Assembly (NCBI GenBank): GCA_903828955.1
Contig: CAIKOA010000008.1
Coordinates: 36,813 to 100,812, forward strand
Source of the DNA: an uncultured Candidatus Micrarchaeota archaeon
GTDB taxonomy: Archaea; Micrarchaeota; Micrarchaeia; Anstonellales; Bilamarchaeaceae
Direction of reading: 5' to 3'
Length of the DNA stretch: 64,000 nt
In this document: in pieces, positions 3,905 through 59,856 of the stretch
Layout: every line of letters begins with the position of its first letter
Position numbering within the stretch: the stretch's first letter is position 1
The notes under the pieces: model-generated
The model's input: the letters and a program-made list of their open reading frames with translations, nothing else
The model's database searches: none
Told to the model about the DNA's origin: nothing
Position numbers and translations under genes: made by a program

Positions 3905-3977
3905 GAGCCCGTGGTCTAGCGGTCAAGACGCCAGCCTTACACGCTGGATATCCCCGGTTCGAATCCGGGCGGGCTCA
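3905..3977 (+). tRNA. tRNA-Val (anticodon TAC)
   Basis: Cloverleaf by hand: acceptor GAGCCCG/CGGGCTC, anticodon arm CCAGC-CTTACAC-GCTGG, T-arm CCCGG-TTCGAAT-CCGGG, discriminator A. No encoded CCA. Confidence 0.85.
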
Positions 3978-4045
3978 TCTGCCCTTTCTTTTTGCAAAAA
4001 GAAAGGGCCGGTTCCCCCAAAGAAAAAGCATTATCGGATATTACT
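3978..4045. repeat. Interspersed A/T-hairpin repeat, copy A, immediately 3' of tRNA-Val
   Basis: Perfect palindrome ccctttctttttgc/gcaaaaagaaaggg followed by cccaaagaaaaagcattatcggatattac. Related copies at 6771, 9351 (inverted), 10616, 29565 and 47326. Confidence 0.7.
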
Positions 4046-4228
4046 CTTAATTTCCTTTTGCAACTCTTTGTACATCTCCTGACGTCGCCCTCGCAACTCC
4101 TTGTGCATCTCCTTACGCTTCTCATTCCTTGATAGTTATTCATAAAAAGTCATTAATAGCAACATTTATATACTTCAATTGAGTAATCATAATGCGGGAT
4201 CGCATTACGCACAAGCACGGTTGTTATT

Positions 4229-5269
4229 ATGGCAGTATTAATGGCAAAAAAGCATCAGCCAAAAAATAGCAGGCAGCCCAGCATGCATGCGGCCCCCAAA
4301 ATCATGGAGCCGGAAAGGCTAAAACCTTCCAAATCCCTGGATTACCGGAAGTTTGACGGCCAAATAATCTCCGTAATCGATTCAGCAATGATCGAAGGCG
4401 CCGGTGAACCACTGGTAAATGACAACACATATTTTTTCGATCCGGCAAGCGGAAAGTATGCGACTTCCAATTATTGGTTTAGAGCTTGCGTATTGCAGGC
4501 AATTATGAATTTCGAACAGCACATGTTTGGGAGGATCAGGCACCCGGAATATAAGGAAAGGTTAGGATTTGAGCTTGAGCATGCACATGAAACCTTGCAG
4601 AAAGAATTTTTACCAATTATCATGGAGGGCCGTCTCAAAATGAGCCTGCTTATAGATTCCCCCGGCGGGGATATCGAGATGTGTTACCTGTTTCAGGCCA
4701 TGGTTCATGATGTTCAAAAAAGAGGAGGCCATGTAGACGCGTACGTTGATACCAAAGCACATAGCGCGGGAGCGCGTTTGTTTCTACAATCCAACAGGAG
4801 ATTCGCGCATAGCGGGTCAGCCATGCTGATACATGACGCCTATGATGAAATAACTGGGGAAGACGTAAAAGATAGAACGTACGGCTCCCGTGTCCATACC
4901 CTAGAATTATTGGAGAAAGCATGCAATCCGCGTAAGATCTGGCAGCTTAGAACATACGACTTTGAGAGGAGGCTAGAAAACCTAGAGAGAATCCAGTCAG
5001 GAGATCCTTACGCAATCACAGGAAGACCTACGGATGTAGAATTTTCAGCCTCAGAACTGAAAGGCTTTGGCATCGCAAGAGTGCTTCCTGATTTAGATGC
5101 ACTGATGCAAATGTTCTTCCTGGAAACAGGGACCAATCCAGAGGAAATCAGGGACCAGATGCGTTTGATTCATTCATTGGGGAGGCCGGGGTTTAAAGAA
5201 AAACCGGAGCATATAGAACCAGTTGCACAATTCTACATCAATGCTTTGGAGCGCGAAGGCTCAGTCTAG
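4229..5269 (+). CDS. ClpP/crotonase-fold serine peptidase-like protein (S14/S49-like)
   Basis: LLIDSPGGDIEMCYLFQAMVHD...DTKAHSAGARLFL matches the ClpP-fold SPGG and Ser-containing AxSAG motifs. TATA-like catttatatact about 50 nt upstream. Start codon uncertain (alternative Met at MHAAPK). Confidence 0.5.
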   Translation: MAVLMAKKHQPKNSRQPSMHAAPKIMEPERLKPSKSLDYRKFDGQIISVIDSAMIEGAGEPLVNDNTYFFDPASGKYATSNYWFRACVLQAIMNFEQHMFGRIRHPEYKERLGFELEHAHETLQKEFLPIIMEGRLKMSLLIDSPGGDIEMCYLFQAMVHDVQKRGGHVDAYVDTKAHSAGARLFLQSNRRFAHSGSAMLIHDAYDEITGEDVKDRTYGSRVHTLELLEKACNPRKIWQLRTYDFERRLENLERIQSGDPYAITGRPTDVEFSASELKGFGIARVLPDLDALMQMFFLETGTNPEEIRDQMRLIHSLGRPGFKEKPEHIEPVAQFYINALEREGSV

Positions 5270-5337
5270 AGGACATCCTTGCAATTTTTCCGAAAGCCGT
5301 TTAAAATGAAATAATTAATCCAATATCGGGAGTTTTT

Positions 5338-6753
5338 ATGGGAGAAAGCAAATTCGTTAACGACAAGATAGCGGAATTGGAAAAAGAATTGGAACTTCTC
5401 AAATCCACCCCCAGTGAAGAGGAATATTTCAGGAAAAGAAGCAGCGCCCGGGTAAAAATGCGCGCAGAGCAGATGATGGCCGCCAAGAACCAGGCTTTCG
5501 ACACCGTCGCCCTCTGGGGTCTATATGGAAAAGAAGACATAAAGCGCTACAAATGCTTCACCCTCCCCCTCTTCATGACAACCGCAGGCGGCTCTTACGA
5601 TAGCTTACTTGATGGCGCCCTCCTCCTCTCCTACCAAACCACAAACGACCCGAATAAGGTTTACAGCAGAATCGACAATGTAAACTCCGACCACCTCGCG
5701 TGGAAGTTCGCAGCCTTAGAAGGTTTAGGCTCCCCGGAACTCACCCAGGGCCTCTGCACCTCTTCCGGAATGTCTGCAATCCTCATGACCACAATGGCCT
5801 TCCTTGAGCCCGGTGACAACTTCGTTTCCTCCAACCGCGTTTACGGAGGCACGGAGCAGCTCTTCAACATCACTTACCCGAAATCCGGCTGGAAGGTTAA
5901 ATGGATTACCGAGCCCTGGGACCTTAGAAAATGGGAATCGAAAATAGATGAAAAAACCAAATTCCTATACGTTGAATCCCCGAGCAACCCAACCCTTTTC
6001 GTTGCAGATATTCCCGCGCTCGCAAAGCTTGCGCACTCGCACGGAATTCCGCTAATAGTCGATTCCACTTTAGCCAGCCCAGCGCTCATGCGCCCCCTTG
6101 AACACGGCGCAGACATCGTACTGCATTCCATCTCAAAGGTTTCCAATGGAAGCTGCAGGGCAATCGGCGGCGTAATAGTCGCCAAGGATAAGATCGTAAC
6201 CAAAAATCCCGCCATCGCGCAGGATTTCGTAAACAAATTAAAAGGAGGCCATTTCCGCAACATGGGCCCCTGCCTCTCCCCGTTCAATTCAATGCTGATT
6301 TGGGACGAAATGAGCACAATTAGGATTAGAATGAAGGAGCACTGCGAAAAGGCAATGAAGATTGCAAATTTCCTTAAAACCCACCCAATGATTGAGGCGG
6401 TCAATTACCCCGGGCTCCCCACCCACCCGCAACACGAAGTCGCAAAGAGGCTCATGAAGCTTCCCGACGGCACAAACGGCTACGGCTACCTTCTCTCATT
6501 CAACATAAAGGGAGGCCTGGAAAAAGCGAAGAAATTCGCAGAAGCATTCGATTTCGGAGTCCAGGTTACCCATCTGGGCGGAAGCTACACAGTCTGGGTA
6601 CACAACGCCACAACCACACATGCCCAGATGAGCTCCGAAGAAAGGAAATCCGCAGGAGTTCTCGACAACATGATCCGCTATTCCGTGGGGCTGGAAGGCG
6701 CGGATGACGCAATCAAGGCGCTGGAAAAGGCGCTGGACAAAATCAAGGATTAA
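5338..6753 (+). CDS. PLP-dependent Cys/Met-metabolism enzyme (O-acetylhomoserine sulfhydrylase / cystathionine gamma-synthase family)
   Basis: Fold-type I PLP enzyme pattern: GLCTSSGMSAI...LHSISKVSNGS (Schiff-base Lys) ...; about 470 aa. Confidence 0.75.
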   Translation: MGESKFVNDKIAELEKELELLKSTPSEEEYFRKRSSARVKMRAEQMMAAKNQAFDTVALWGLYGKEDIKRYKCFTLPLFMTTAGGSYDSLLDGALLLSYQTTNDPNKVYSRIDNVNSDHLAWKFAALEGLGSPELTQGLCTSSGMSAILMTTMAFLEPGDNFVSSNRVYGGTEQLFNITYPKSGWKVKWITEPWDLRKWESKIDEKTKFLYVESPSNPTLFVADIPALAKLAHSHGIPLIVDSTLASPALMRPLEHGADIVLHSISKVSNGSCRAIGGVIVAKDKIVTKNPAIAQDFVNKLKGGHFRNMGPCLSPFNSMLIWDEMSTIRIRMKEHCEKAMKIANFLKTHPMIEAVNYPGLPTHPQHEVAKRLMKLPDGTNGYGYLLSFNIKGGLEKAKKFAEAFDFGVQVTHLGGSYTVWVHNATTTHAQMSSEERKSAGVLDNMIRYSVGLEGADDAIKALEKALDKIKD

Positions 6754-6770
6754 GCCTCCGCATCAGTACT

Positions 6771-6836
6771 ATCCGATACTGTTTTTCTTTTGCGTCCTGC
6801 CAGACTTTTCTTTTTACAAAAAGAAAAGGGTGGCAT
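6771..6836. repeat. Interspersed A/T-hairpin repeat, copy B
   Basis: gatactgtttttcttttgcgtcctgccagacttttctttttacaaaaagaaaaggg. Near-identical to the reverse complement of 9351..9412. Confidence 0.7.
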
Positions 6837-9199: not shown

Positions 9200-9350
9200 G
9201 CCACCTACGTATATGTGGTAAGTATTTTATTCTTATGTATATCCATCTATTTAGATAATCCCTGAAACGGCGAGCCAATTTTCAAATCACGCTATTGTAT
9301 TAAATTCCCCCTCCCCCATACTCCTTTCAGGCGACCAACATGAACTGGCC

Positions 9351-9430
9351 CACCACCCTTTTCTTTTTGTAAAAAGAAAAGTCTGGTGGGACGCAAAAGA
9401 AAAACAGTATGCAGGAATAAAGGTGGAGAT
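9351..9430. repeat. Interspersed A/T-hairpin repeat, copy C (inverted relative to B), flanked by 11-bp direct repeats
   Basis: Direct repeat atgaactggcc at 9340..9350 and 9431..9441 brackets the element. The second copy supplies the start codon of the DUF457 gene. Confidence 0.7.
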
Positions 9431-9895
9431 ATGAACTGGCCGGAACATATGCTCATAGGCGCACTTGCAGGAGTGCTTGTTGCATATTTCCTAGGGGCGG
9501 ATTTGCTCACTTCCGCCCTAATTATTGGAATGGTTTCAGTTTCCGCACTTGCCCCGGACATAGACCACGATTCCTCCAAAATAAGGCAGGCCGCGAACCT
9601 TGCAGTTCCTCTGGCCGCATTCTCCTTTGCAATCACTTCCGCCTGCGAAAACAACCTCCAATGCGTCTTCGCGCACAAGGAATCAATCCTCATAAACGGC
9701 CTTGCAGTAGTGGGCTTGTATATGCTCATAATGACCTTCCTGAAGCCCAGGCACCGCGGGATAATCCATACGCTCAGCGCAGCAGCTGTGTTCGGCCTCC
9801 TCGTCTACATTCTCTCAGATTCCACTTTCGCAATCGCAGGCTTCGCAGGCTATTTCTCACACCTTCTTGCAGACCGGCAGATAAAATTAATCTGA
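9431..9895 (+). CDS. Membrane-bound metal-dependent hydrolase, DUF457 (YdjM-like) family
   Basis: MNWPEHMLIGALAG...APDIDHDSSK...HRGIIHTLS...SHLLADR, the His/Asp pattern of DUF457 multi-pass proteins. ORF 9386.. has an in-frame extension that runs through repeat C. Confidence 0.65.
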   Translation: MNWPEHMLIGALAGVLVAYFLGADLLTSALIIGMVSVSALAPDIDHDSSKIRQAANLAVPLAAFSFAITSACENNLQCVFAHKESILINGLAVVGLYMLIMTFLKPRHRGIIHTLSAAAVFGLLVYILSDSTFAIAGFAGYFSHLLADRQIKLI

Positions 9896-10453: not shown

Positions 10454-10615
10454 CTTCCTTTAATTTTATTTTCCGTTTTTTTTAATCCCAACCCATAAGA
10501 ATGGTCTTATCCATATTTTCCCTGGGAGCTTAGGCGCCTGATGATGAGCAAAGTTTTCCTGAGCGTTTTCTTTAAACGGAATCCTGCGGTGATGAGAAAC
10601 TGGAGCTCTGAGTCA

Positions 10616-10700
10616 CCCCTTTCTTTTTGCGAAAAAGAAAGGTGCGAATCACCCAAAGAAAAAGCATTTTCCAATATTACTTGGGCGCTAGTTGCCTTGC
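10616..10700. repeat. Interspersed A/T-hairpin repeat, copy D, flanked by about 28-bp imperfect direct repeats
   Basis: cccctttctttttgcgaaaaagaaagg...cccaaagaaaaagcattttccaatattac. Flanks: tgatgagaaactggagctctgagtcaccc (10591..10619) and taatgagaaaccggagctctgaatgccc (10701..10728). Confidence 0.65.
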
Positions 10701-10768
10701 TAATGAGAAACCGGAGCTCTGAATGCCCTCATTTAAATTCATTTTCAGCGAGTAATGCCTGTGATAAA

Positions 10769-17779: not shown

Positions 17780-17899
17780 ATTCTAAGTTATTGAAGTATA
17801 AGGATATCCATTTTACGTAAGCGGGCTGGGAACTGAAGGCTGGCATTGCGTGAGAATAGGCTGCAAATCAATAAAAAGAAAAGCGAGGGAAAATAATTC

Positions 17900-19465
17900 A
17901 TGGCAGAGAAAATGCTTACGCCTGAAGAGAAGGCGGCAGCAATGCCGGTTATACAGAGCGCGATGCAGGCATACCAGCAGCACTACGGGATAAAGCTTAC
18001 CGAGCAGGAAACTTCCCGCGTCATGGATAGGGCCCTTAACAATCTGAATTCCCAAGCAACGCCAAGCGAAGTGCGCGGGGCGGTAAGGAACCTGATGCTC
18101 GAGGTCCTCACCAAAAATGACCCTGCGCGCGCAACTGAGCTACAGATGCAGGCGCAGGGCGTTCCTGGATCAGAGAGAAGCAGGATACCCGCTATTGCTG
18201 AGAATGAAGGAGCCAATGCTGCAAATGCCGGCTTACCAAAAGAGGCCGGAGCCCAGACTCCGGCACAAAGCCCGATGTTTTTAGGCCCAAAGCATGGCCA
18301 GGAAACCCAGCAGGAGCAATTCGCTTCTGAGCAGAAGAAAATAATCGGACAGATTTTTGCAATAAGCCCAAAGCACTTTCAGGAAGCCATCCTTAGCAAA
18401 ATCGAGCCTCTCAAACCAAACGCAACCTCAGAAGAAAGGATGGAAAAGATAAAGGAACTGTTCAACCTTATAAAAAAAGGAGGAGTGCTAGGCATCGAAT
18501 ACCAGTTCTCCGAAGGCAGACCTCCGAAAACCCCTAACGAGGTCTTAACTCCTGAGAAAGACGGAAAAATGCGGGCGGATTGCGATGAGCTTTCCCTTTT
18601 CTTTATTGCTGCGGCACGAAAACTGAATATCGACCTTTCGGATGTAAGCATCGCAGTGGTTAAGTTCGAAGCGCAAAATCCCGTTTTGCTAAACAAAAAA
18701 GAGCCATTGCATGCTGCCATTCTGACAATCGGAAACGAGAAAGCTCTTCTGGACCCGGTTTTTGGAATAATGGAGAAAATGAACTCTTTTGGTTCAGAAG
18801 ACCTTCTCAAGGCATATAACGGAAAGTTTCTTCCGGGCAACTTTATGATAGTTGGGGTTTTGGATGTAAAGATTGCCAGCGATTTAGCAGATATGGCAAG
18901 CATTCATTTTCATGAGAAAGCCAAATACTATGCAAGCCAATTTCAAACCGAGAAAGCAATATCTACTTTAGAAATAGCAACCGCAATAAGCCCGAATAGC
19001 ATTAATCTCAAGGAGGAACTGCTCGGGCTTTATTTGAATATCGCGGACGAAGCGGTCAGCAGCGGGAAAATTTCCATGGCAGAAGCCAATTCCAAAAAGG
19101 CACTTTTGTTGGGCTCAAAGATCAGCTCTCCTGGCAGCGCGGTTATTGATAATCTTTACCATGCGCACGATGTTTTAGGGTCAGCATACATGAAACAGAA
19201 GAAATATTCTGCAGCCATTTCAGAGTTCGATGAAATGATTAGAATAAAACCTGCGGAGCCGTTGGCATACTATAATAAGTCATATATACTCTATGGTTTG
19301 GCAGGAGATGCATACCGCGCAGGCGCCGTAGAGGACGCTAAAAAATATCTTAGTGACGCAGAAAGCACGATGTTTGCCGCGTCACAAAGAGTTGCTGAAG
19401 AAAAATATGACCAAAATATGATGGAATTGTTCCGTCTTATCCAAGAAAAAAGGTCAAAACTTTAG
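17900..19465 (+). CDS. Multi-domain protein: conserved N-domain (shared with 59503..59805) + transglutaminase-like Cys-protease core + TPR-like helical C-terminus
   Basis: N-terminal 80 aa are about 60% identical to ORF 59503..59805 (MAEKMLTPEE[KR]AA..PV[IV]QSAMQ.Y.QHYG.KLTE.ETSRV). Middle: CDELSLFFIAAARKLNI...HAAILTIG...LDPVFG, a Cys-His-Asp transglutaminase-like core. C-terminus: TPR-like helices. Confidence 0.7.
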   Translation: MAEKMLTPEEKAAAMPVIQSAMQAYQQHYGIKLTEQETSRVMDRALNNLNSQATPSEVRGAVRNLMLEVLTKNDPARATELQMQAQGVPGSERSRIPAIAENEGANAANAGLPKEAGAQTPAQSPMFLGPKHGQETQQEQFASEQKKIIGQIFAISPKHFQEAILSKIEPLKPNATSEERMEKIKELFNLIKKGGVLGIEYQFSEGRPPKTPNEVLTPEKDGKMRADCDELSLFFIAAARKLNIDLSDVSIAVVKFEAQNPVLLNKKEPLHAAILTIGNEKALLDPVFGIMEKMNSFGSEDLLKAYNGKFLPGNFMIVGVLDVKIASDLADMASIHFHEKAKYYASQFQTEKAISTLEIATAISPNSINLKEELLGLYLNIADEAVSSGKISMAEANSKKALLLGSKISSPGSAVIDNLYHAHDVLGSAYMKQKKYSAAISEFDEMIRIKPAEPLAYYNKSYILYGLAGDAYRAGAVEDAKKYLSDAESTMFAASQRVAEEKYDQNMMELFRLIQEKRSKL

Positions 19466-22963: not shown

Positions 22964-23081
22964 TCGCCAACGGCCATAGGGAGCTGGAAACACCCGATCC
23001 CATCTCGAACTCGGAAGTTAAGCGGCTCTACGGCTTTATCTGTACTGCCCTAAGGGTGGGAAAATGGGCTGCTGTTGGCAC
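22964..23081 (+). rRNA. rrf: 5S rRNA, copy 1
   Basis: GCCAACGGCCATAGGGAGC...CCCGAACTCGGAAGTTAAGC...GTACTGCCCTAAGGGTGGGAA...GCTGTTGGC. Helix I closes the 5' and 3' ends. TTTATAA TATA box 25 nt upstream (22934..22940). Confidence 0.85.
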
Positions 23082-24762: not shown

Positions 24763-24880
24763 TCGCCAACGGCCATAGGGAGCTGGAAACACCCGATCCC
24801 ATCTCGAACTCGGAAGTTAAGCGGCTCTACGGCTTTATCTGTACTGCCCTAAGGGTGGGAAAATGGGCTGCTGTTGGCAC
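24763..24880 (+). rRNA. rrf: 5S rRNA, copy 2
   Basis: Identical to copy 1 over the mature region. The duplicated block extends from about 24711 to 24890 (about 190 bp, about 95% identity with 22911..23090), including the upstream promoter-like segment. Confidence 0.85.
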
Positions 24881-25999: not shown

Positions 26000-26199
26000 C
26001 CGCTTCCCCCTCGCATATTACTTATATAAACCAAACGGTCTCCTTTCACAAATATATGGTAAAACACCGCGTAAGGAGATGTTCAAAGCGCATCAAAGGC
26101 GGCGTCAGGAGATGCAAAAAGAGTGACAAAGAAAAGTGCGCCGCGGGTTTTGCGCCACTGCTTTTGCCCGGCTAAGACAGAAGGACAAAAGCGGTGAAT

Positions 26200-29453: not shown

Positions 29454-29564
29454 ATGCCACTTGCTAATAAACGGCATAATCATTTGCACCCGTTTATTTT
29501 AAAAAACAAATCCGTGCGCGTTGCGTAAGGAGATGTTTAAAGAGTTGCAAAGCATAAGGAGAGT

Positions 29565-29600
29565 AATATTCGACACTGTTTTTCTTTTAGGTGTGCTAGC
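29565..29600. repeat. Interspersed repeat, partial copy E (no hairpin half)
   Basis: gacactgtttttcttttaggtgtgctagcc matches copy F (gatactgtttttcttttaggtgcgctagcc) at 32/36 positions. Confidence 0.55.
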
Positions 29601-46569: not shown

Positions 46570-47325
46570 ATACACCTGATTATCGGAGTCGACCCCGGAG
46601 TTTACACCGCATATGCAGCCATTGATTTGAATGGAAACCTGATTGCTTCAGGCTGCGAAAAAGAGGCAAGCCACGAAAGGATTGTAGAAATAATCTCCCA
46701 TCTTGGAAAGCCTTCGCTAATCGCAACCGATGTTTGCCCTGCACCTGATTTTGTGCAAAAGGTCGCAGCCCGTTTCCATGCGCGATTGCACATCCCTGAA
46801 CGCAGCATGCTTGTTGAAAAGAAAAAAGAGATTGGAAAGGAAATCCAGAACCCGCATGTGCGCGATGCGCTTGCCGCTGCGGTAAAAGCATACCGGCATT
46901 ATGAGAACACCTTGCGCAGGATTGAGCATTCTGATACTGCCTTCGACAAGGAACTCCTGAAGCACCTCTTTATCCAGGGTTATTCTGTAAAGAACGCAGA
47001 ATTCATGCTTGCAAAGCGAGAAGAGAAAAAGTTAGAACAGAGCGGGGAAATTGAAGACCGGAGGACACGGACTCCGGAGCAGGTAAAAAAAGACGAGCGC
47101 CTTCTTTCAATCCTTTCTGAGAACGAAAACCTCCGCAAAGCCCTTGAACTCGAGCGCGCCCGCCGCGCTGATGCGGAAGAGAAATTAAAGAGGGCGGGAA
47201 CTTCCCGCGTTGTAGAAGTGAGCCGCGACCGCGAAGTCCAGAGGCTGCAGGGGCAAATCGCAAGGATGCAGTCCTTTATTTTCCACCTGAAAAACAGAAG
47301 TGAAAAGAAGAAAATGAAGAAATGA
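46570..47325 (+). CDS. COG2433/DUF460-like protein: RNase-H-fold (RuvC/YqgF-like) N-domain + coiled coil; no canonical start codon before the conserved motif
   Basis: Frame reads IHLIIGVDPGVYTAYAAIDLNGNLIASG (YqgF/RuvC N-terminal motif) from 46570. No ATG/GTG/TTG in frame between the upstream stop (46486) and TTG 46627, which the ORF track uses as the start. Confidence 0.5.
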   Translation: MHLIIGVDPGVYTAYAAIDLNGNLIASGCEKEASHERIVEIISHLGKPSLIATDVCPAPDFVQKVAARFHARLHIPERSMLVEKKKEIGKEIQNPHVRDALAAAVKAYRHYENTLRRIEHSDTAFDKELLKHLFIQGYSVKNAEFMLAKREEKKLEQSGEIEDRRTRTPEQVKKDERLLSILSENENLRKALELERARRADAEEKLKRAGTSRVVEVSRDREVQRLQGQIARMQSFIFHLKNRSEKKKMKK

Positions 47326-47440
47326 TATTTGATACTGTTTTTCTTTTAGGTGCGCTAGCCTTTTCTCCTTGAGCCGTTGCTCAAGGGAAGAAAGCGAAGC
47401 TTTCTCAGATTTTACAAAAAGAAAAGGATGGCAAATGGGG
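47326..47440. repeat. Interspersed A/T-hairpin repeat, copy F (long variant with internal insertion)
   Basis: gatactgtttttcttttaggtgcgctagcc ... tttacaaaaagaaaagg. Same ends as copy B, with about 45 extra bp inside. Confidence 0.6.
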
Positions 47441-47518
47441 GATCTGTGATTTGAACACAGATAACAAGCTCCCAAAGCTTGCAGCATACCAGGTTGGCTC
47501 AATCCCCCGTGAGAGAAT

Positions 47519-56041: not shown

Positions 56042-56496
56042 TGATGGGGGGTTGCTTGGGATGAAACACTTTAGGGGGCGCTCCCCCTGAAGGGTTCTTC
56101 ACGGTTTCCGTCTGGGTTCCCTACACCACAATCGTCTCAAAAGGAACCATCTGAAGGAGCCCGCAAATCCATTCCGGATCGGCCTTTTTATGCTTTTCAC
56201 CAACTGTTTTTCAGAATACGAGAGAGGGAAAAACGCCCCCGGTGGAAAAGCCCAAAAATGCGGGTTTTTTCAGGAGCGGTGCAACAAATTTTCAGAAGTA
56301 TTCTCCGTCTGAGGGGCAAAACCTTTTTAAACACGTATATTCATATCTATCCTTTACCTTTTACGCTTCGAGCGCCCTCTTCGACGAATGGCGCGATGAA
56401 AAACGAATTTATTCATATAGGGTAGGCTATCTCTTCACGTTGGGGAGACAGCCGGCGTTTATAACGCCAAAAGAGTGTGAAGTAACTAGCTATGAA

Positions 56497-59396
56497 GTTT
56501 GGATATGTTGCATCCATGTAGTGGATGACTAGGCTAGTGCCAGCAAACTCACGTGGTAAGCTGCGATAAGCTTGGGTTAGGTGCACGCAACCATTGACCC
56601 CAAGATCTGAGTGAGTGCCCCTCGGGAAACTGAGGCGCACAGCTACCCCGGGAATTGAAACATCTAATTACCGGGTGGAAAAGAAACCAATTGGGATTCG
56701 GTTAGTAAGTGGACTGAAAGCCGAACAGGCCGTGCTGAATTCCCTGCAGCAATGCAGGGCAAATGTGGCGGGGAATATCCATTCTCTGAGCAGAAGTCCC
56801 CTGGAATGGGGTGCCATAGCGAGTGAAAGCCTCGTATGCGAAGGAGTGTGGAGTGAACCAAAACGAGTACCGTCCACCGGATAGCGGGCGGGAATATGGG
56901 GGTATCAACCTCCAAGCCTAAATATTGGGCATTAGACCGATAGCGAATGAGTAACGCGAGTGAACGTTGAAAAGGACCCCGGAAGGGGTGTTAAAAGAAC
57001 CTGAAACTACATGGAGACAGGAAGGTAAGGCATGAAAGGGTTATATGTTTGCCGAAGTGAATCCCAGAAATGGTTGGATCGAGGCAAAAGCACCAGTGTC
57101 TTATCATTCTTCTCGAAGCAAGAGCCAGGGAGTTTATCTGTGTGGCGAGACGAAAGTCGAAGCGAAAGCGAGCGTCCGCAGGTAACCAGGGACATCCTCT
57201 GAAAAGGGGACCAGTCACACAGATCAGACCCGAAGCCGGCGCGATCTACTCCTGACCAGGGTGAAGCCAGCCTGTCCGTTGGTGGAGGCCCGCAACCAGT
57301 GATGGTATATTCCTCTTGGGTGAGTCAGGTGTAGGGGTGATAGTCCAGTCGAGCTTGGCAATAGCGGGTTCCCCTCGAAATGTATCTCAGTACAGCGTCT
57401 TCCGAGGATGATAACGGGGTAGAGCACTGAATGGGAAGAGCGGCTCCGAAAGGTGTCACTTCCCTATCAAACTCCGAATTCGTTATCTCCGTAGACGAAG
57501 GCAGTCGGGTTCACGGGGTAAGCTTGTGAACCCTTACGGGAACGACCGTACGTGAGGTTAAGGGCCCTAAATTCTGGTTAAGTGTGAATACAAAGGAGCT
57601 TCTATCCTTAGACAGCTGGAAGGTAGGCTTAGAAGCAGCCATCCTTTAAACAACGCGTAATAGCGGACCAGTCGAGGATGCAGGTTCCGAAAATTGACGG
57701 GGCTAAACCAGATCCCGATACCCCACCCGAGCCAAAAGCTCGTGGAGTAGGGGGGCGAACGGGGCGGGTAGAAGCAAGGCGGTAACGTCTTGTGGACCGT
57801 TCTGTTATGAATATCCTGGTGTCAGTAGTAGCATATCCAAGTGAGAATCTTGGACGTCTGATAGGGCACGGTTTCCTCAGCCATGTTTGTCAGCTGAGGG
57901 TTAGGCGATCCTAAGTGGTGAGGTAACACCGGAGCCACGAAAGGGAAGCAGGTTAATATTCCTGCCCAACAGAGGTAGATGCGGCAACGCAAGTGCGGTT
58001 TTTGACCGCTTGGGATAAGCTGAGCCCGGGAGACCGGGTTTAACAGCGATACATCCATCGAGTCTTATCATGAGGAGAAGTGGATGAAACGCTGGAATAG
58101 GAGCAATCTTTGGCCGATTCCTGAGTGCCATGAAAAGAAAACCGTTCCGATCCTCTATTTCCGTACCTAGAACCAATACAGGTGCCCCTGGCTGAAAAGG
58201 CCCAGACGTGTTAAGACAACCCAGGCAAGGGAACTCGGCAAAATAGTCCCGTAACTTAGGAAGAAGGGATGCCTACCATCTTGTAGATGGTAGGTGGCAC
58301 TGACAAGGGGAGTGCGACTGTTTATCAAAAACACAGATCACCGCAAGGTCGTAAGGCTTAGTATGGTGGTCGACGCCTGCCCACTGCCAGTACCTGAACG
58401 CCCCATTCAAGGGGAAGAAGGGCTGGTAAAGAGCGGGGGTAACTCTGACCCTCTTAAGGTAGCGTAATACCTCGCCGCTTAATTGGCGGCTTGCATGAAC
58501 GGCGTAACGCCACTCCTACTGTCCCTGCCTGGGACTTAGTGAACTCATTGCCCGGTGAAGATACCGGGGACTTCCAGAGGGAAACGAAGACCCCGTGGAG
58601 CTTTACTATAGCCTGATGTTGCTGTATCGGTGTGGCTACCGAGCGTAGATGGGAGCCGTCGAGACCGTATCTCCGGATACGGTGGAGGCAAAATTGAAAC
58701 ACCATCTAGTTATGCTGATACTGCTTACCCGCAAGGGGACAGCATCAGGTGGATAGTTTGGCTGGGGCGGTACGCCCTCGATAGAAAAACAAGGGCGCCC
58801 AATGTTCTGCTCAGGCGGGTCAGAAATCCGCTGTAGAGGGTTAAAGACAAATGCAGGGCTGACTGTGTTCCTAAAAGCGTGGAACGCAGAGACGAAAGTC
58901 GGGCTTAACGAACCTTAGTATTCTATTGATGGGAATCTAAGCTGTCAGACAAGCTACCCCGGGGGTAACAGGCTCGTCGCGGGCGAGAGTACACATCGAC
59001 CTCGCGGCTTGGTACATCGCTGTCGGCTTGGGACATCCTGGTGGTGCAGGAGCCACCAAGGGTTGGGTTGTACATCCATTAAAGTCCCACATGAGCTGGG
59101 TTCAGTACGTCGCGAGACAGTACGGTAGTATCTTCTGGAAGTGTAGGTTCTTGAGGGGAAGGAACTTTGAGTACGAGAGGAACGGAGTCCCGGGGCCTCT
59201 GGTGTATCGGTTGTGTCAATGCATTGCCGAGCAGCTACGCCCTCCGTCGATAAGACCTGAAAGCATCTAAGGTCGAAGCGACACCCAAAACGAGGAACCA
59301 AAGACCGCCTATAGTAGATAGGTTTGATAGGAGCGGGGTGTAAGTCCTTAGCTAACGCGAGGGATTCAGCCTGCGCTTACTAAAGGTATAATCCCA
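56497..59396 (+). rRNA. rrl: 23S (large subunit) rRNA, about 2.9 kb, not linked to 16S or 5S
   Basis: 5' region GTGGATG...AAGCTGCGATAAGC...GGGAATTGAAACATCTAATTACC (domain I). Sarcin-ricin and peptidyl-transferase-like segments further in. Ends bracketed by a complementary processing stem (56483..56496 / 59397..59412). All ORFs called inside were rejected. Confidence 0.85.
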
Positions 59397-59502
59397 AATT
59401 TCATAGCTAGTTATCTTTTTCATTCTATTTTATTTTACTTCGTCTTAGCGTGAGCGCTGCCCAGTTCCTATCCCAAAATTAAGTTTAAGTTAAATCCGCG
59501 TT

Positions 59503-59805
59503 TTATTTCTTCTCCTTCTTTTCCGCGGGCTTCTCCGCCTTCTCTTTCCCAGCCCCCTTCTTGAACTCGGCTGCCCTGGCCGGGTCCTTCTTGGATAGAA
59601 GCGCAAACATCTGCTTTACGACTTCCCACTTTACTTCGCTAGCAGTTGCAGAGGATTTCAGCCGATCTAGGGCCCGCTCCACCACCCGGGAGGTTTCCCG
59701 CTCCGTAAGCTTTAGCCCGTAGTGCTGCTCGTAGTTTTGCATCGCGCTCTGCACAACCGGAGTTTCCGCCGCCCGCTCTTCCGGAGTAAGCATTTTCTCT
59801 GCCAT
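59503..59805 (-). CDS. Small N-domain protein (paralog of the N-terminus of ORF 17900..19465), Lys/Glu-rich tail
   Basis: MAEKMLTPEERAAETPVVQSAMQNYEQHYGLKLTERETSRVVERALDRL... is about 60% identical to residues 1-80 of 17900..19465. Confidence 0.65.
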   Translation of the reverse strand: MAEKMLTPEERAAETPVVQSAMQNYEQHYGLKLTERETSRVVERALDRLKSSATASEVKWEVVKQMFALLSKKDPARAAEFKKGAGKEKAEKPAEKKEKK

Positions 59806-59856
59806 GCATTAATTTCCCCACATTTCTTTTTATTGTTTTGCACCCATTTCTAAGCG

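Follow-up and report, generated by a model that had tools for sequence, protein, structure and literature searches.

A dispersed A/T-rich repeat family with triplex-capable symmetry in a DPANN archaeon

What are the short palindromic repeats scattered through this 64,000-nucleotide stretch (the window), whose host is an uncultivated DPANN archaeon of the class Micrarchaeia, near Ca. Bilamarchaeaceae? A sequence-only reading had listed six copies and offered two explanations, MITE-like elements or a terminator hairpin that has spread. An nhmmer profile built from 12 family members recovered the same six and no others in the 64-kb window: copy D (10612-10685, E=1e-20), copy A (3977-4048, E=5e-20), copy B (6760-6835, E=1e-16), copy C (9350-9416, E=2e-14), copy E (29560-29594, E=1e-4, partial) and copy F, matched in two pieces (47320-47366 and 47395-47430). 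Dispersed, non-coding and 35-110 nt long, they comprise four complete copies (A-D), one interrupted (F) and one truncated (E). The 25-nt core pattern occurs at three palindromic sites (six strand matches) in the window versus none in 100 shuffles, and a structure-aware scan for a perfect pyrimidine/purine stem of at least 8 bp with a mirrored third segment returned copies A-D, with no match in 20 Markov shuffles. The sub-families proposed earlier (B/C, A/D and E/F) proved right in a repeat search of the window, where B and C are 97% complementary over 58 nt (inverted) and A and D are 78% identical over 64 nt; the outer stem of B and C carries two compensatory changes (TGCCA/TGGCA versus CCACCA/TGGTGG). 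More copies are present in the relatives L090, L122, L124, L125 and L155 (L numbers denote related loci). Rfam, at gathering and permissive thresholds, yielded no family matching the element, and a literature search returned no description of the family.

The core of the repeat has a constant order on one strand: a pyrimidine segment Y1 (e.g., TTTTTCTTTT), a linker of 4-17 nt, a second pyrimidine segment Y2 (CTTTTCTTTTT), a loop of 2-3 nt and a purine segment R (AAAAAGAAAAG). Y2 pairs with R in a Watson-Crick hairpin, while Y1 is the mirror image of Y2 and the parallel pyrimidine image of R, with T for A and C for the internal G. What had been described as a second, separate conserved arm is actually the third strand of this mirror/inverted tripartite motif. 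Judged by its symmetry, the order is that of an intramolecular pyrimidine-motif triple helix (a class IV intrastrand triplex), such that a single-stranded Y1-Y2-R strand, DNA or RNA, could fold into T.A-T triples with one C+.G-C. Across 82 pyrimidine/purine hairpins from DPANN archaeal loci, an upstream segment that mirrors Y2 beats a direct copy by 62:3 (p=2.5e-15). A faces a parallel T at 607 of 617 positions, and an internal G a parallel C at 81 of 82. There are 23 distinct purine cores, such as AAGAAAGAAAAAA with TTCTTTCTTTTTT and AAAAGAGAAAAAG with TTTTCTCTTTTTG, and in orthologous D copies the run lengths of Y2, R and the third segment change together, from 4/4/4 (L125) through 5/5/5 (window) to 6/6/6 (L122). 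We take these patterns to show that the three segments are held in register by selection, and the three-way covariation shows selection on triplex potential itself. Triplex formation we infer from sequence symmetry alone; ViennaRNA predicts the hairpin only, with z-scores of -2.0 to -3.9. Intrastrand triplexes of the pyrimidine motif form in both DNA and RNA, while A/T-rich ones of the purine motif are weak and in RNA are excluded (PMC4666352). A test for an RNA strand by the asymmetry of G.U versus C.A stem mismatches returned register artefacts and too few real mismatches. The tripartite pattern has only 2 matches in 2.9 million viral contigs, indicating that the element is not common in viruses, and a hairpin-pattern scan of a genome collection gave an archaeal enrichment among the matches listed that may be biased.

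Copy A (3978-4048, minus strand; complete, A/D sub-family), detected by profile, repeat search and structure scan, begins its hairpin 4 nt 3' of tRNA-Val(tac) (3905-3977, plus strand). On the plus strand the hairpin reads CCCTTTCTTTTT GC AAAAAGAAAGGG (3982-4007) and is followed by the linker (4008-4015), the third segment CCCAAAGAAAAA (4016-4027), which is the reverse complement of the Y1 sequence TTTTTCTTTGGG, and the 5' module (4028-4048). In L125 the orthologous copy after tRNA-Val lies in 143 nt of 93% identity, as conserved as tRNA-Val itself, where coding DNA is only 65-74% identical. A companion 30-nt repeat (GCGTMAGGAGATGYACAARGAGTTGC..., two tandem units at 4057-4118, minus strand) adjoins the module side of A-type copies; it recurs in the window at 29523-29552 (beside copy E) and 26069-26131, beside an A-type copy in L155, and in L153. 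A micro-ORF starting in this companion repeat was rejected, as by eye the copies do not conserve it. Copy B (6760-6836, plus strand; complete, B/C sub-family) consists of a module (6760-6781), Y1 (6782-6792, TTTTTCTTTTG), linker (6793-6804), Y2 (6805-6815), loop (6816-6817) and R (6818-6828), with an outer stem at 6798-6802/6831-6835. Its Y1 begins 28 nt past the stop codon of an O-acetylhomoserine sulfhydrylase gene (5338-6753), and a T6 run lies 17 nt 3' of R. Copy E (29560-29600, plus strand; truncated, E/F sub-family), found by the profile between tRNA-Gly(tcc) and tRNA-Ser, is partial as the sequence-only reading had it: the module, Y1 (29579-29588) and the linker GGTGTGCTAGCC remain, and the hairpin is absent. 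The "long variant" reported at 47326-47440 is a genuine copy that is better described as a B-like copy F (47320-47430, plus strand; interrupted, E/F sub-family) with a 43-nt insertion (47367-47409), carrying two small hairpins, in its 5' hairpin arm. Here Y1 (47338-47347) and the linker (47348-47358) precede a Y2 divided into 47359-47366 and 47410-47413, a loop (47414-47415) and R (47416-47427); Y1 begins 13 nt past the end of a DUF460 ORF (47325), and 8 nt separate the end of R from the tRNA-Pro 3' end (47436-47508, minus strand); at this tRNA, L156 retains a decayed copy.

Copy D (10613-10702, minus strand; complete, A/D sub-family), with its hairpin at 10618-10642, linker at 10643-10652, third segment at 10653-10663 and module at 10664-10685, directly follows the D box of an unannotated C/D box sRNA gene (10537-10612, plus strand). 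We read this gene from the sequence by its boxes (C, CUGAUGAUGA; D', CUGA; C', GUGAUGAG; D, CUGA); it has a weak Rfam sR3 match (22.9 bits, E=0.013) and is kept in L122-L125. A 20-nt direct repeat, ATGAGAAAC[T/C]GGAGCTCTGA, flanks copy D at 10592-10611 and 10703-10722 and is the 3' end of the sRNA. The alternative placement of copy D within a Yip1 ORF with a duplicated start codon was rejected, since the "ATG" is part of the sRNA C' box; the Yip1 gene begins downstream of its own TATA box. Among the hairpin ends of the elements, a neighboring C/D box gene was seen at the D locus alone.

Does the family move? Copy C (9351-9428, minus strand), identified by alignment with L122, structure scan and profile, is a 78-nt insertion with a hairpin (9358-9381) and third segment (9394-9404) but without a module, and the L122 alignment shows a clean empty site. 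It sits between the promoter region and the start codon (ATG 9431) of a YdjM-family gene, bounded by an 11-13-nt target duplication whose left member is ACATGAACTGGCC (9338-9350) and whose right member, ATATGAACTGGCC (9429-9441), includes the YdjM start codon. The presence/absence comparison suggested by the sequence-only reading bears out insertion polymorphism: all four relatives L122-L125 carry one ATGAACTGGCC at the C site without the element, copy D is missing after the orthologous sRNA in L123, and copy B is missing together with two genes (4229-6753) in L125. Flanking direct repeats of at least 14 nt border 5 of 78 elements versus 4 of 390 control positions. Duplications measure 11-13 nt at C, 20 nt at D, 17-20 nt at L046, 19 nt at L025 and 17 nt at L022, an overall range of 11-20 nt, and most copies are without a visible target duplication. 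An A-type unit that is ~94% identical over ~107 nt stands beside tRNA-Val in the window and beside tRNA-Gln in L155, with the same CAGA junction. Distribution is patchy: L122, L124 and L125 carry elements, and the other relatives have 0-1 in ~190 kb, the relatives for this count having been selected by a protein and not by the element. The evidence thus supports a dispersed, recently active element with presence/absence polymorphism and target duplications.

The absence of a transposase from the window, claimed earlier, was upheld: in a Pfam scan of 50 window ORFs, none matched a transposase, an integrase or a reverse transcriptase. A 346-aa protein between copies A and B, considered as a transposase, gave weak ClpP-like matches only. 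No terminal inverted repeats were found, the palindrome being internal and at one end; by eye, the termini of copy C match each other weakly (9/11) and those of copy D do not. Of the MITE-like proposal, dispersal, polymorphism and duplications therefore stand, whereas strict MITE membership does not follow, because the duplications vary in length and neither terminal inverted repeats nor, among the 50 window ORFs scanned, a cognate transposase was found.

A DNA-level alternative is that a non-B structure (H-DNA, or an intrastrand triplex plus cruciform) acts as a recombination or replication-pausing hot spot and was spread by recombination or repair and not by transposition. The three-block organization is as in the PIT/TMECO repeats, which are linked to rearranged loci (PMC4666352). 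In a comparison confined to element loci, rearrangements are likewise seen between close relatives: the D segment is inverted and the Yip1 gene absent in L122, L125 lacks the 2.76-kb block that separates copies A and B, which stand in inverted orientation, and a tRNA-Gln takes the place of the window's tRNA-Pro in L155. Variable duplication lengths would also fit repair-mediated patch insertion. However, H-DNA needs a mirror repeat only, while the constant same-strand R and the 2-3-nt loop point to a single-stranded fold, and the clean 78-nt insertion of copy C with its duplication looks like transposition; we regard this alternative as quite unlikely. Separately, one related contig ends near an element locus.

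A highly improbable variant of mobility is a retro-mobile, SINE-like element, in which an RNA with a 3' triple helix would be reverse-transcribed at a nicked target; we know of no archaeal precedent for an element of this kind. Such a mechanism would leave duplications that vary between 11 and 20 nt, a 3' (R) junction that is precise and 5' ends truncated to different extents. Duplications do vary (11-13, 14, 17, 19 and 20 nt), and the elements have a precise R/hairpin end close to the target and a module end that differs among copies, copy C having no module. Triple helices stabilize transposon RNAs in plants and fungi, and in favor of the SINE-like mechanism the R tract can be likened to retroviral polypurine tracts. 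Yet Pfam found no reverse transcriptase among the 50 window ORFs scanned, copy E is truncated on its 3' and not its 5' side, and the evidence is circumstantial throughout.

The location of the elements with respect to stable-RNA genes follows a consistent polarity. In related genomes the hairpin end nearly always abuts the RNA gene (hairpin-proximal ~17:1), with other elements in relatives lying 1-7 nt from tRNA ends. Two elements fall within tRNA introns by ARAGORN and full-length Rfam tRNA matches (L008, 4483-4619; L029, 144-336) and four more by ARAGORN only (L038, L070, L092 and L100); these intronic copies belong to related loci only, and none of the six window copies is intronic. In L034 an element appears to lie in a ~0.6-kb insertion in 23S rRNA. 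In ~20 of ~25 stable-RNA-associated cases the strand able to form the triplex runs antisense to the RNA gene, and it does so at copies A, D and F in the window. A sense orientation of this strand, with R ending 3-5 nt upstream of the tRNA 5' end, is seen in L077 (twice), L096 and L108. With respect to protein-coding genes, for which ORF calls were crude, 5' gene ends face the third-segment side 31:17, a bias that is not significant, and at related loci many elements are flanked on both sides by divergent gene starts and are not at 3' ends.

The sense layout is what RNase P would cut, and it is one of several observations that favor an archaeal ENE/MALAT1-like RNA element. In such an element, the Y1-Y2-R strand would be transcribed, and U-rich Y1 (Hoogsteen) and Y2 (Watson-Crick) would clamp the A-rich R and so shield the 3' end of the RNA from exonucleases. 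Processing of the neighboring tRNA, or of an antisense structure resembling a tRNA, would define that end, or else a U-tract further downstream would; and the A-type unit, whose 60-nt 5' part is conserved, would represent a small RNA gene that converges on tRNAs. The strands have the order and roles seen in MALAT1, with the parallel-base rule borne out in the 82 hairpins; copies B and F run Y1-first just past stop codons, B being followed by its T6 run 17 nt after R; the A-type unit is ~94% conserved over ~107 nt at two different loci; and copy A is as conserved as its own tRNA. Against this, the competent strand is antisense in ~20 of the ~25 cases, a co-directional gene end lies upstream of Y1 in only 17 of 48 elements (by the same crude ORF calls), the polymerase must pass up to four U4 tracts before reaching R, and empty sites with duplications are insertion behavior. 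We consider this element unlikely. A broader proposal, which we rate as rather unlikely, is a functional RNA triple helix that would be the first ENE/MALAT1-like 3'-end cap in Archaea, in which two U-rich strands would clamp an A-rich tract encoded in the genome; either it would be coupled to tRNA processing, or a mobile element that colonizes tRNA introns would carry it and put the triplex to use in an RNA or ssDNA intermediate of its own. The tripartite motif is also present in several rumen and gut Firmicutes MAGs, so that, if the functional RNA triple helix were real, the principle would not be confined to DPANN.

Copies A, B, D, F and possibly E, but not C, lie at transcription-unit 3' ends. 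The pyrimidine segments of the family (T4CT5 and T5CT4 in B, C and F; T3CT5 and T5CT3 in A and D) resemble, as written, an archaeal U-tract terminator, for which two U4 tracts constitute the minimal aCPSF1-dependent signal, with a median efficiency near 50% (PMC8716108). Of the six other window tRNAs, five are followed within 12 nt by a T4-T5 run, which is often part of a T-run/A-run palindrome; the exception is tRNA-Ser, which continues into tRNA-Thr. For tRNA-Val, tRNA-Pro and the sRNA, the element hairpin is the only T-tract of this kind. Copies A and D are retained in relatives, and the old copies A, D and F, which follow tRNA-Val, the C/D sRNA and tRNA-Pro respectively, have probably been retained as terminators. 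Because each pyrimidine segment is a double U-tract, gene-end copies may act as leaky, bidirectional archaeal terminators, and, since U-tracts also lie inside tRNA introns, 5' leaders and the rRNA insertion, termination there must be leaky or masked. The hairpin-proximal rule (~17:1) is not accounted for by a terminator role. The proposal of a spread terminator hairpin is in line with the positions of A, B, D, F and possibly E and with the double-U4 match (PMC8716108); a pure terminator is at odds with the intron, 5'-leader and apparent 23S copies and with copy C. A promoter role for the module or third segment was rejected, as neither the distances nor the window's own TTTAWA promoters fit.

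Could the family then be purely host-encoded, a non-mobile bidirectional intrinsic terminator whose copies are alike through selection for T-run/A-run palindromes? The position of five of the six window copies (E possibly) at 3' ends, the equivalence of the segments to a double-U4 signal, the similar T-run/A-run palindromes of native window tRNA terminators and the retention of A and D are all compatible with this. Convergence is nevertheless contradicted by 97% complementarity over 58 nt, including a non-T linker, and ~94% identity over ~107 nt, and the empty-site alignments with target duplications largely refute the non-mobile reading. Copies in tRNA introns, 5' leaders and an apparent 23S insertion, as well as copy C between promoter and start codon, do not suit a terminator, and termination requires T-runs, not a C at the exact mirror position. 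We judge a solely host-encoded terminator very unlikely.

On balance, we favor, with a probability of roughly 0.55, a ~70-130-nt non-autonomous mobile element with a triplex-capable three-segment core that settles at stable-RNA gene ends. The element inserts with 11-20-nt target duplications and has its hairpin end beside stable-RNA gene ends or, in related genomes, in their introns. The triplex may be what the element needs to propagate or persist, and gene-end copies could serve as leaky bidirectional terminators, a role for which the old copies A, D and F may have been kept. To our knowledge, all intrastrand-triplex repeats described so far are G/C-rich, bacterial and of unknown function, and long U.A-U triple helices come only from eukaryotic and viral RNAs; new here is an A/T-rich, archaeal, mobile and triplex-capable family. 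It occupies the few safe places of very compact DPANN genomes, namely tRNA/rRNA introns and tRNA/sRNA gene ends. The family offers a system for asking whether prokaryotic cells make and use triple helices, how the introns of archaeal tRNA genes expand and disperse, and how a mobile element comes to supply terminators to stable-RNA genes. In practical terms, the repeats mark rearrangement points, and through them tRNA finders can miss intron-bearing genes.

Compared with known systems, the family is like MITEs in being small, non-coding, dispersed in both orientations and divided into sub-families with near-identical young copies, and in its empty and filled orthologous sites and flanking target duplications. 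It is unlike them in having no terminal inverted repeats, an internal palindrome at one end, long and variable (11-20 nt) duplications, no related transposase known, and a strong preference of fixed polarity for stable-RNA gene ends and introns. In Thermoproteales, related sequences reportedly occur in the introns of different tRNAs, at non-canonical positions too, suggesting intron-associated mobility; unlike those transposed introns, the present element is found between genes too, where it has inserted and duplicated its target.

MALAT1 is built of a first U-rich segment, a small stem-loop, a second U-rich segment and an A-rich tract, with a single C+.G-C among U.A-U triples. Strand order and predicted pairing roles are shared with such helices of an ENE and an A-rich tract (MALAT1, MENbeta, KSHV PAN and transposon ENEs), as are, at the level of sequence, ~10 stacked U.A-U triples with one C+.G-C, and in a few related loci a tRNA starts 3-5 nt after the A-rich tract, as in MALAT1/mascRNA. 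In contrast to ENE helices, most tRNA-associated archaeal copies are antisense, a loop of 2-3 nt links the A-rich tract to its Watson-Crick strand, the behavior is that of mobile DNA, and there is no sequence homology. With archaeal aCPSF1/FttA U-tract terminators the family shares two U4 tracts per segment in B, C and F (Li et al. 2021, PMC8716108), and its palindrome gives U-tracts on both strands. These terminators need no hairpin, mirror symmetry, conserved linker or module, all of which the element has, and, unlike them, its copies also occur where termination would be harmful (introns, leaders and 5' regions).

The remaining comparison is with PIT, BoxC and TMECO, the intrastrand-triplex repeats of Enterobacteria and Cyanobacteria (Hoyne and Maher 2000, 2002; Holder et al. 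2015, PMC4666352). Both groups are short, multi-copy and intergenic, with loops less conserved than stems; both have three homopurine/homopyrimidine blocks per strand, one inverted and one mirrored, so arranged that one strand, folded twice, can form a triplex; and both show rearranged loci and have no established function. The bacterial repeats are G/C-rich and of the purine-motif class II (Y-R-R, C.G-G triads), with the consensus CCCTCNCCC...GGGNGAGGG... (PMC4666352). The archaeal family, by contrast, is A/T-rich, and only its pyrimidine-motif class IV strand should be stable (Hoogsteen-Y-R, T.A-T and C+.G-C), a motif that would be possible in RNA as well. Also unlike the bacterial repeats, this DPANN family lies in tRNA introns and at tRNA and sRNA ends and shows insertion polymorphism with target duplications.

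A profile of 12 family members matched exactly the six window copies proposed by the sequence-only reading, with no other match above noise: A (3978-4048, minus strand), B (6760-6836, plus), C (9351-9428, minus), D (10613-10702, minus), E (29560-29600, plus) and F (47320-47430, plus). The proposed 25-nt hairpin core occurs at three palindromic sites versus none in 100 shuffles, and a repeat search recovered the suggested sub-family pairs A/D (64 nt, 78%) and B/C (58 nt, 97%); B and C, otherwise 97% identical, carry two compensatory pair differences in the outer stem. The "long variant" F is a real, B-like copy, but a 43-nt insertion interrupts its 5' hairpin arm, and E is indeed partial, keeping only the 5' module and first pyrimidine segment. 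The insertion in F (47367-47409) folds as two small hairpins (CCTTGAGC cgtt GCTCAAGG and GAGAAAGC ttc GCTTTCTC) and may be another small insertion element. A location of copy D within the Yip1 ORF was ruled out; this copy directly follows a C/D box sRNA at 10537-10612.

On the strand of the previously described "second arm", each complete copy consists of a 5' module (AGTAATATYCGAWAMTG, present only in this lineage), a first pyrimidine segment (Y1, e.g., TTTTTCTTTT), a variable linker, a second pyrimidine segment (Y2, e.g., CTTTTCTTTTT), a 2–3-nt loop, and a purine segment (R, e.g., AAAAAGAAAAG), with Y2 and R forming the hairpin. The "second arm" is not a separate arm: Y1 does not repeat either hairpin arm, in direct or inverted form, but mirrors Y2. 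Y1 thus parallels R, with T in place of A and C in place of G. Such a relation is what a pyrimidine-motif triple helix requires of its sequence if Y1 is to occupy the major groove in parallel with R. The polarity is also suitable, since one and the same end of the helix would bring together the 3' end of Y1 and the 5' end of Y2. The element is a predicted class IV intrastrand triplex in the Hoyne/Holder scheme. Read on the other strand, it gives a class II motif of A.A-T type, for which only weak formation in DNA and none in RNA is expected (PMC4666352).

Scanning with the hairpin pattern, one genome per species, returned at least 120 loci. Among the matches listed, approximately 48 of 120 loci are archaeal (mostly Micrarchaeota, Iainarchaeota, Aenigmatarchaeota, and Woesearchaeota), an enrichment that is only indicative, and at nearly all archaeal loci a segment 4–17 nt upstream of the hairpin fits the ideal third strand. 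Using a tripartite scanner in which sequence is not fixed, we found 78 elements in 390 kb of archaeal DNA (47 scan loci and the 64-kb window) versus 26 in 504 kb of bacterial loci; the window gave 4 matches versus 0 in 20 shuffles, and element-free relatives gave 0–1 in ∼190 kb. For the mirror test, 82 pyrimidine/purine hairpins were chosen without regard to Y1. The mirror target outperformed the direct-repeat target 62 to 3 (p = 2.5e-15), and the third-strand base was T at 607 of 617 positions opposite A and C in 81 of 82 cases opposite internal G. Facing the terminal G-run it was G in 46 cases and C in 17, which would fit either parallel G.G-C triples or a short closing stem. The purine cores comprise 23 distinct sequences, including asymmetric examples such as AAGAAAGAAAAAA with TTCTTTCTTTTTT and AAAAAGAAAAGAA with TTTTTCTTTTCTT. 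The strongest individual example is given by the orthologues of copy D, whose T/A runs in Y2, R, and the third segment are 4/4/4 in the related contig L125, 5/5/5 in the window, and 6/6/6 in the related contig L122. These results indicate that mirror symmetry is a general rule kept by selection.

The same tripartite motif (T5CT4G, 3–5-nt linker, CT4CT5, loop, A5GA4G) was observed in rumen/gut Firmicutes MAGs, at loci L010, L023, and L078 (Clostridia MAG RGIG3285), L053 and L086 (Selenomonadaceae MAG), and L041, L018, and L074. The origin of several loci from a single MAG and the homologous flanks common to L023 and L078 suggest analogous repeat families in bacteria. Separately, an element-bearing Woesearchaeota locus (L039, 2179-2383) contains an Rfam RT-16 RNA (68 bits), an RNA motif linked to reverse transcriptase genes.

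The window (∼50% G+C) has archaeal gene content, with seven tRNAs, a 23S rRNA gene (56494-59402) that has no 16S or 5S beside it, and two 5S genes (22966-23080 and 24765-24879) within a 182-nt duplication (96% identical). The two 5S genes are separated by 1.8 kb and are 32 kb away from the 23S gene, so that the rRNA genes are not linked. An inverted repeat of 280 nt (72% complementary) has its arms 41 kb apart at 17874-18153 and 59552-59831, one of them directly after the 23S gene. The closest named homologue of the DUF460 protein (46627-47325) is from Candidatus Bilamarchaeaceae (class Micrarchaeia, 82% identity), further homologues at 57–62% are labelled Micrarchaeota, and the best DNA match to the element is a Micrarchaeia MAG locus (L090, 91% over 69 nt), so that the source is probably an uncultivated DPANN archaeon of class Micrarchaeia. 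The unannotated C/D box sRNA gene (10537-10612, plus strand) has readable C, D', C', and D boxes and a weak Rfam sR3 match, and is kept in four related metagenome contigs.

The earlier suggestion of MITE-like mobility holds in part: empty sites and target duplications were found, whereas the element has no terminal inverted repeats and its duplications vary in length (11–20 nt). At copy C, alignment with L122 leaves a clean 78-nt gap, and the target A[C/T]ATGAACTGGCC is present once in L122 and twice in the window, around the copy; the YdjM proteins of the two are 85% identical. The empty site recurs in the relatives L123, L124, and L125. In L122, L124, and L125, as in the window, copy D immediately follows the D box, while the sRNA of L123 lacks it. 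The 3' end of this sRNA is an insertion hot spot. In the window, a 20-nt stretch from the sRNA 3' end is duplicated around copy D; at this spot L125 has a further, unrelated insert of 100 nt, with a duplication of 14 nt. Of the 78 elements, 5 have flanking repeats of 14 nt or more, versus 4 of 390 control positions; a duplicated tRNA-Arg 3' end in L046 is among them. That the element is instead a recombination-prone non-B DNA site resembling PIT/TMECO is quite unlikely. The sequence-only reading stated that the window has no transposase; the 50 ORFs scanned with Pfam likewise yielded none, nor an integrase or reverse transcriptase. A retro-mobile element is very improbable.

In L125, tRNA-Val and copy A run directly into the amino-acid-kinase gene, and 2.76 kb of the window, comprising two genes and copy B, is missing. 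This block (window 4049-6836 versus L125 201-235) encodes a 346-aa protein with weak similarity to ClpP, together with an O-acetylhomoserine sulfhydrylase, and is bounded by inverted copies A and B with their hairpins outward, a layout similar to a composite transposon, although copy A itself is present in L125. In L122, a close relative, the sRNA and copy D lie in an inverted segment (1240-1480), no Yip1 gene is present, and the full copy has a second, partial one without a hairpin beside it.

In related genomes the element occupies anticodon-loop introns of well-formed tRNAs, confirmed in L008 and L029 by full-length tRNA matches in Rfam (spans of 137 and 193 nt, respectively) and predicted by ARAGORN in L038, L070, L092, and L100, and, by eye, a T-loop intron (L006). 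In an Aenigmatarchaeota MAG (L034, 583-2044), the 3' 830 model positions of 23S rRNA span 1462 nt; from this Rfam length mismatch and blastn coordinates, the element (1631-1671) appears to lie inside a ∼0.6-kb 23S rRNA insertion, presumably an rRNA intron. Other elements lie 1–7 nt from tRNA ends. It is the hairpin end, rather than the third segment, that points towards the RNA gene, in ∼13 of 14 elements on the 3' side and all 4–5 on the 5' side; in 7 of 8 introns, it points towards the 5' exon. Within the window, A (after tRNA-Val), D (after the sRNA), and F (abutting tRNA-Pro) are all hairpin-first; B and F are also Y1-first, right after stop codons; and C, the sole copy in a 5' region, is the youngest.

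Copy A in L125 shows 93% identity over 143 nt (tRNA and element) versus 65–74% for coding DNA, copy D is present in four genomes, and the tRNA-Pro copy has decayed in the relative L156, where Y2 is missing. Copies at stable-RNA 3' ends thus persist, and others come and go. In the relative L155, a tRNA-Gln takes the place of the window's tRNA-Pro and has beside it an A-type copy ∼94% identical over ∼107 nt to window copy A, an identity that takes in a companion 30-nt repeat and the CAGA junction. The companion repeat (GCGTMAGGAGATGYWYAAAGAGTTGCAAAG; window 4057-4118, 26069-26131, and 29523-29552; L155 2520-2552; L153 4770-4800) is often tandem, occurs downstream of tRNA genes, adjoins the module side of A/E-type copies and, in the tRNA sense, contains CATCTCCTTA, like a 16S rRNA 3' end. 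Two Logan contigs with an 86%-identical DUF460 protein (L153/L154, 4757-4854) both end ∼100 nt past the gene at this repeat, with no recognisable element there, which could be an assembly break.

Each pyrimidine segment provides two U4-5 tracts, and two U4 tracts are the minimal aCPSF1-assisted termination signal in archaea, with a median efficiency of ∼50% (PMC8716108). A T4-T5 run lies at most 12 nt downstream of 5 of the 6 other window tRNAs, often in a T-run/A-run palindrome; tRNA-Ser, which has none, continues straight into tRNA-Thr. For tRNA-Val, tRNA-Pro, and the sRNA, the only tract of this kind comes from the element, from which we infer that the retained copies probably act as leaky bidirectional terminators. 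This role leaves the mirror symmetry, the hairpin-proximal polarity, and the intron and leader copies without explanation. A purely host terminator is improbable. The symmetry is best explained if the element itself, when single-stranded, needed to form a triplex, whether as DNA while it moves or replicates or in RNA form. The strongest of the alternatives, though unlikely, is a true RNA 3'-end triple helix; the sense orientation at L077, L096, and L108 and the conserved 107-nt unit speak for it. We favor, with a probability of roughly 0.55, a mobile intrastrand-triplex element of which some copies have been taken over as terminators.

Rfam contains no family matching the element, and the literature searched describes no A/T-rich, tRNA-intron-associated triplex repeat in archaea. 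The nearest described systems, the bacterial PIT/BoxC/TMECO repeats, share its three-block logic but are G/C-rich, purine-motif, and of unknown function; MITEs are other near relatives. The predicted fold of the element would be similar to the MALAT1/ENE triple helix.
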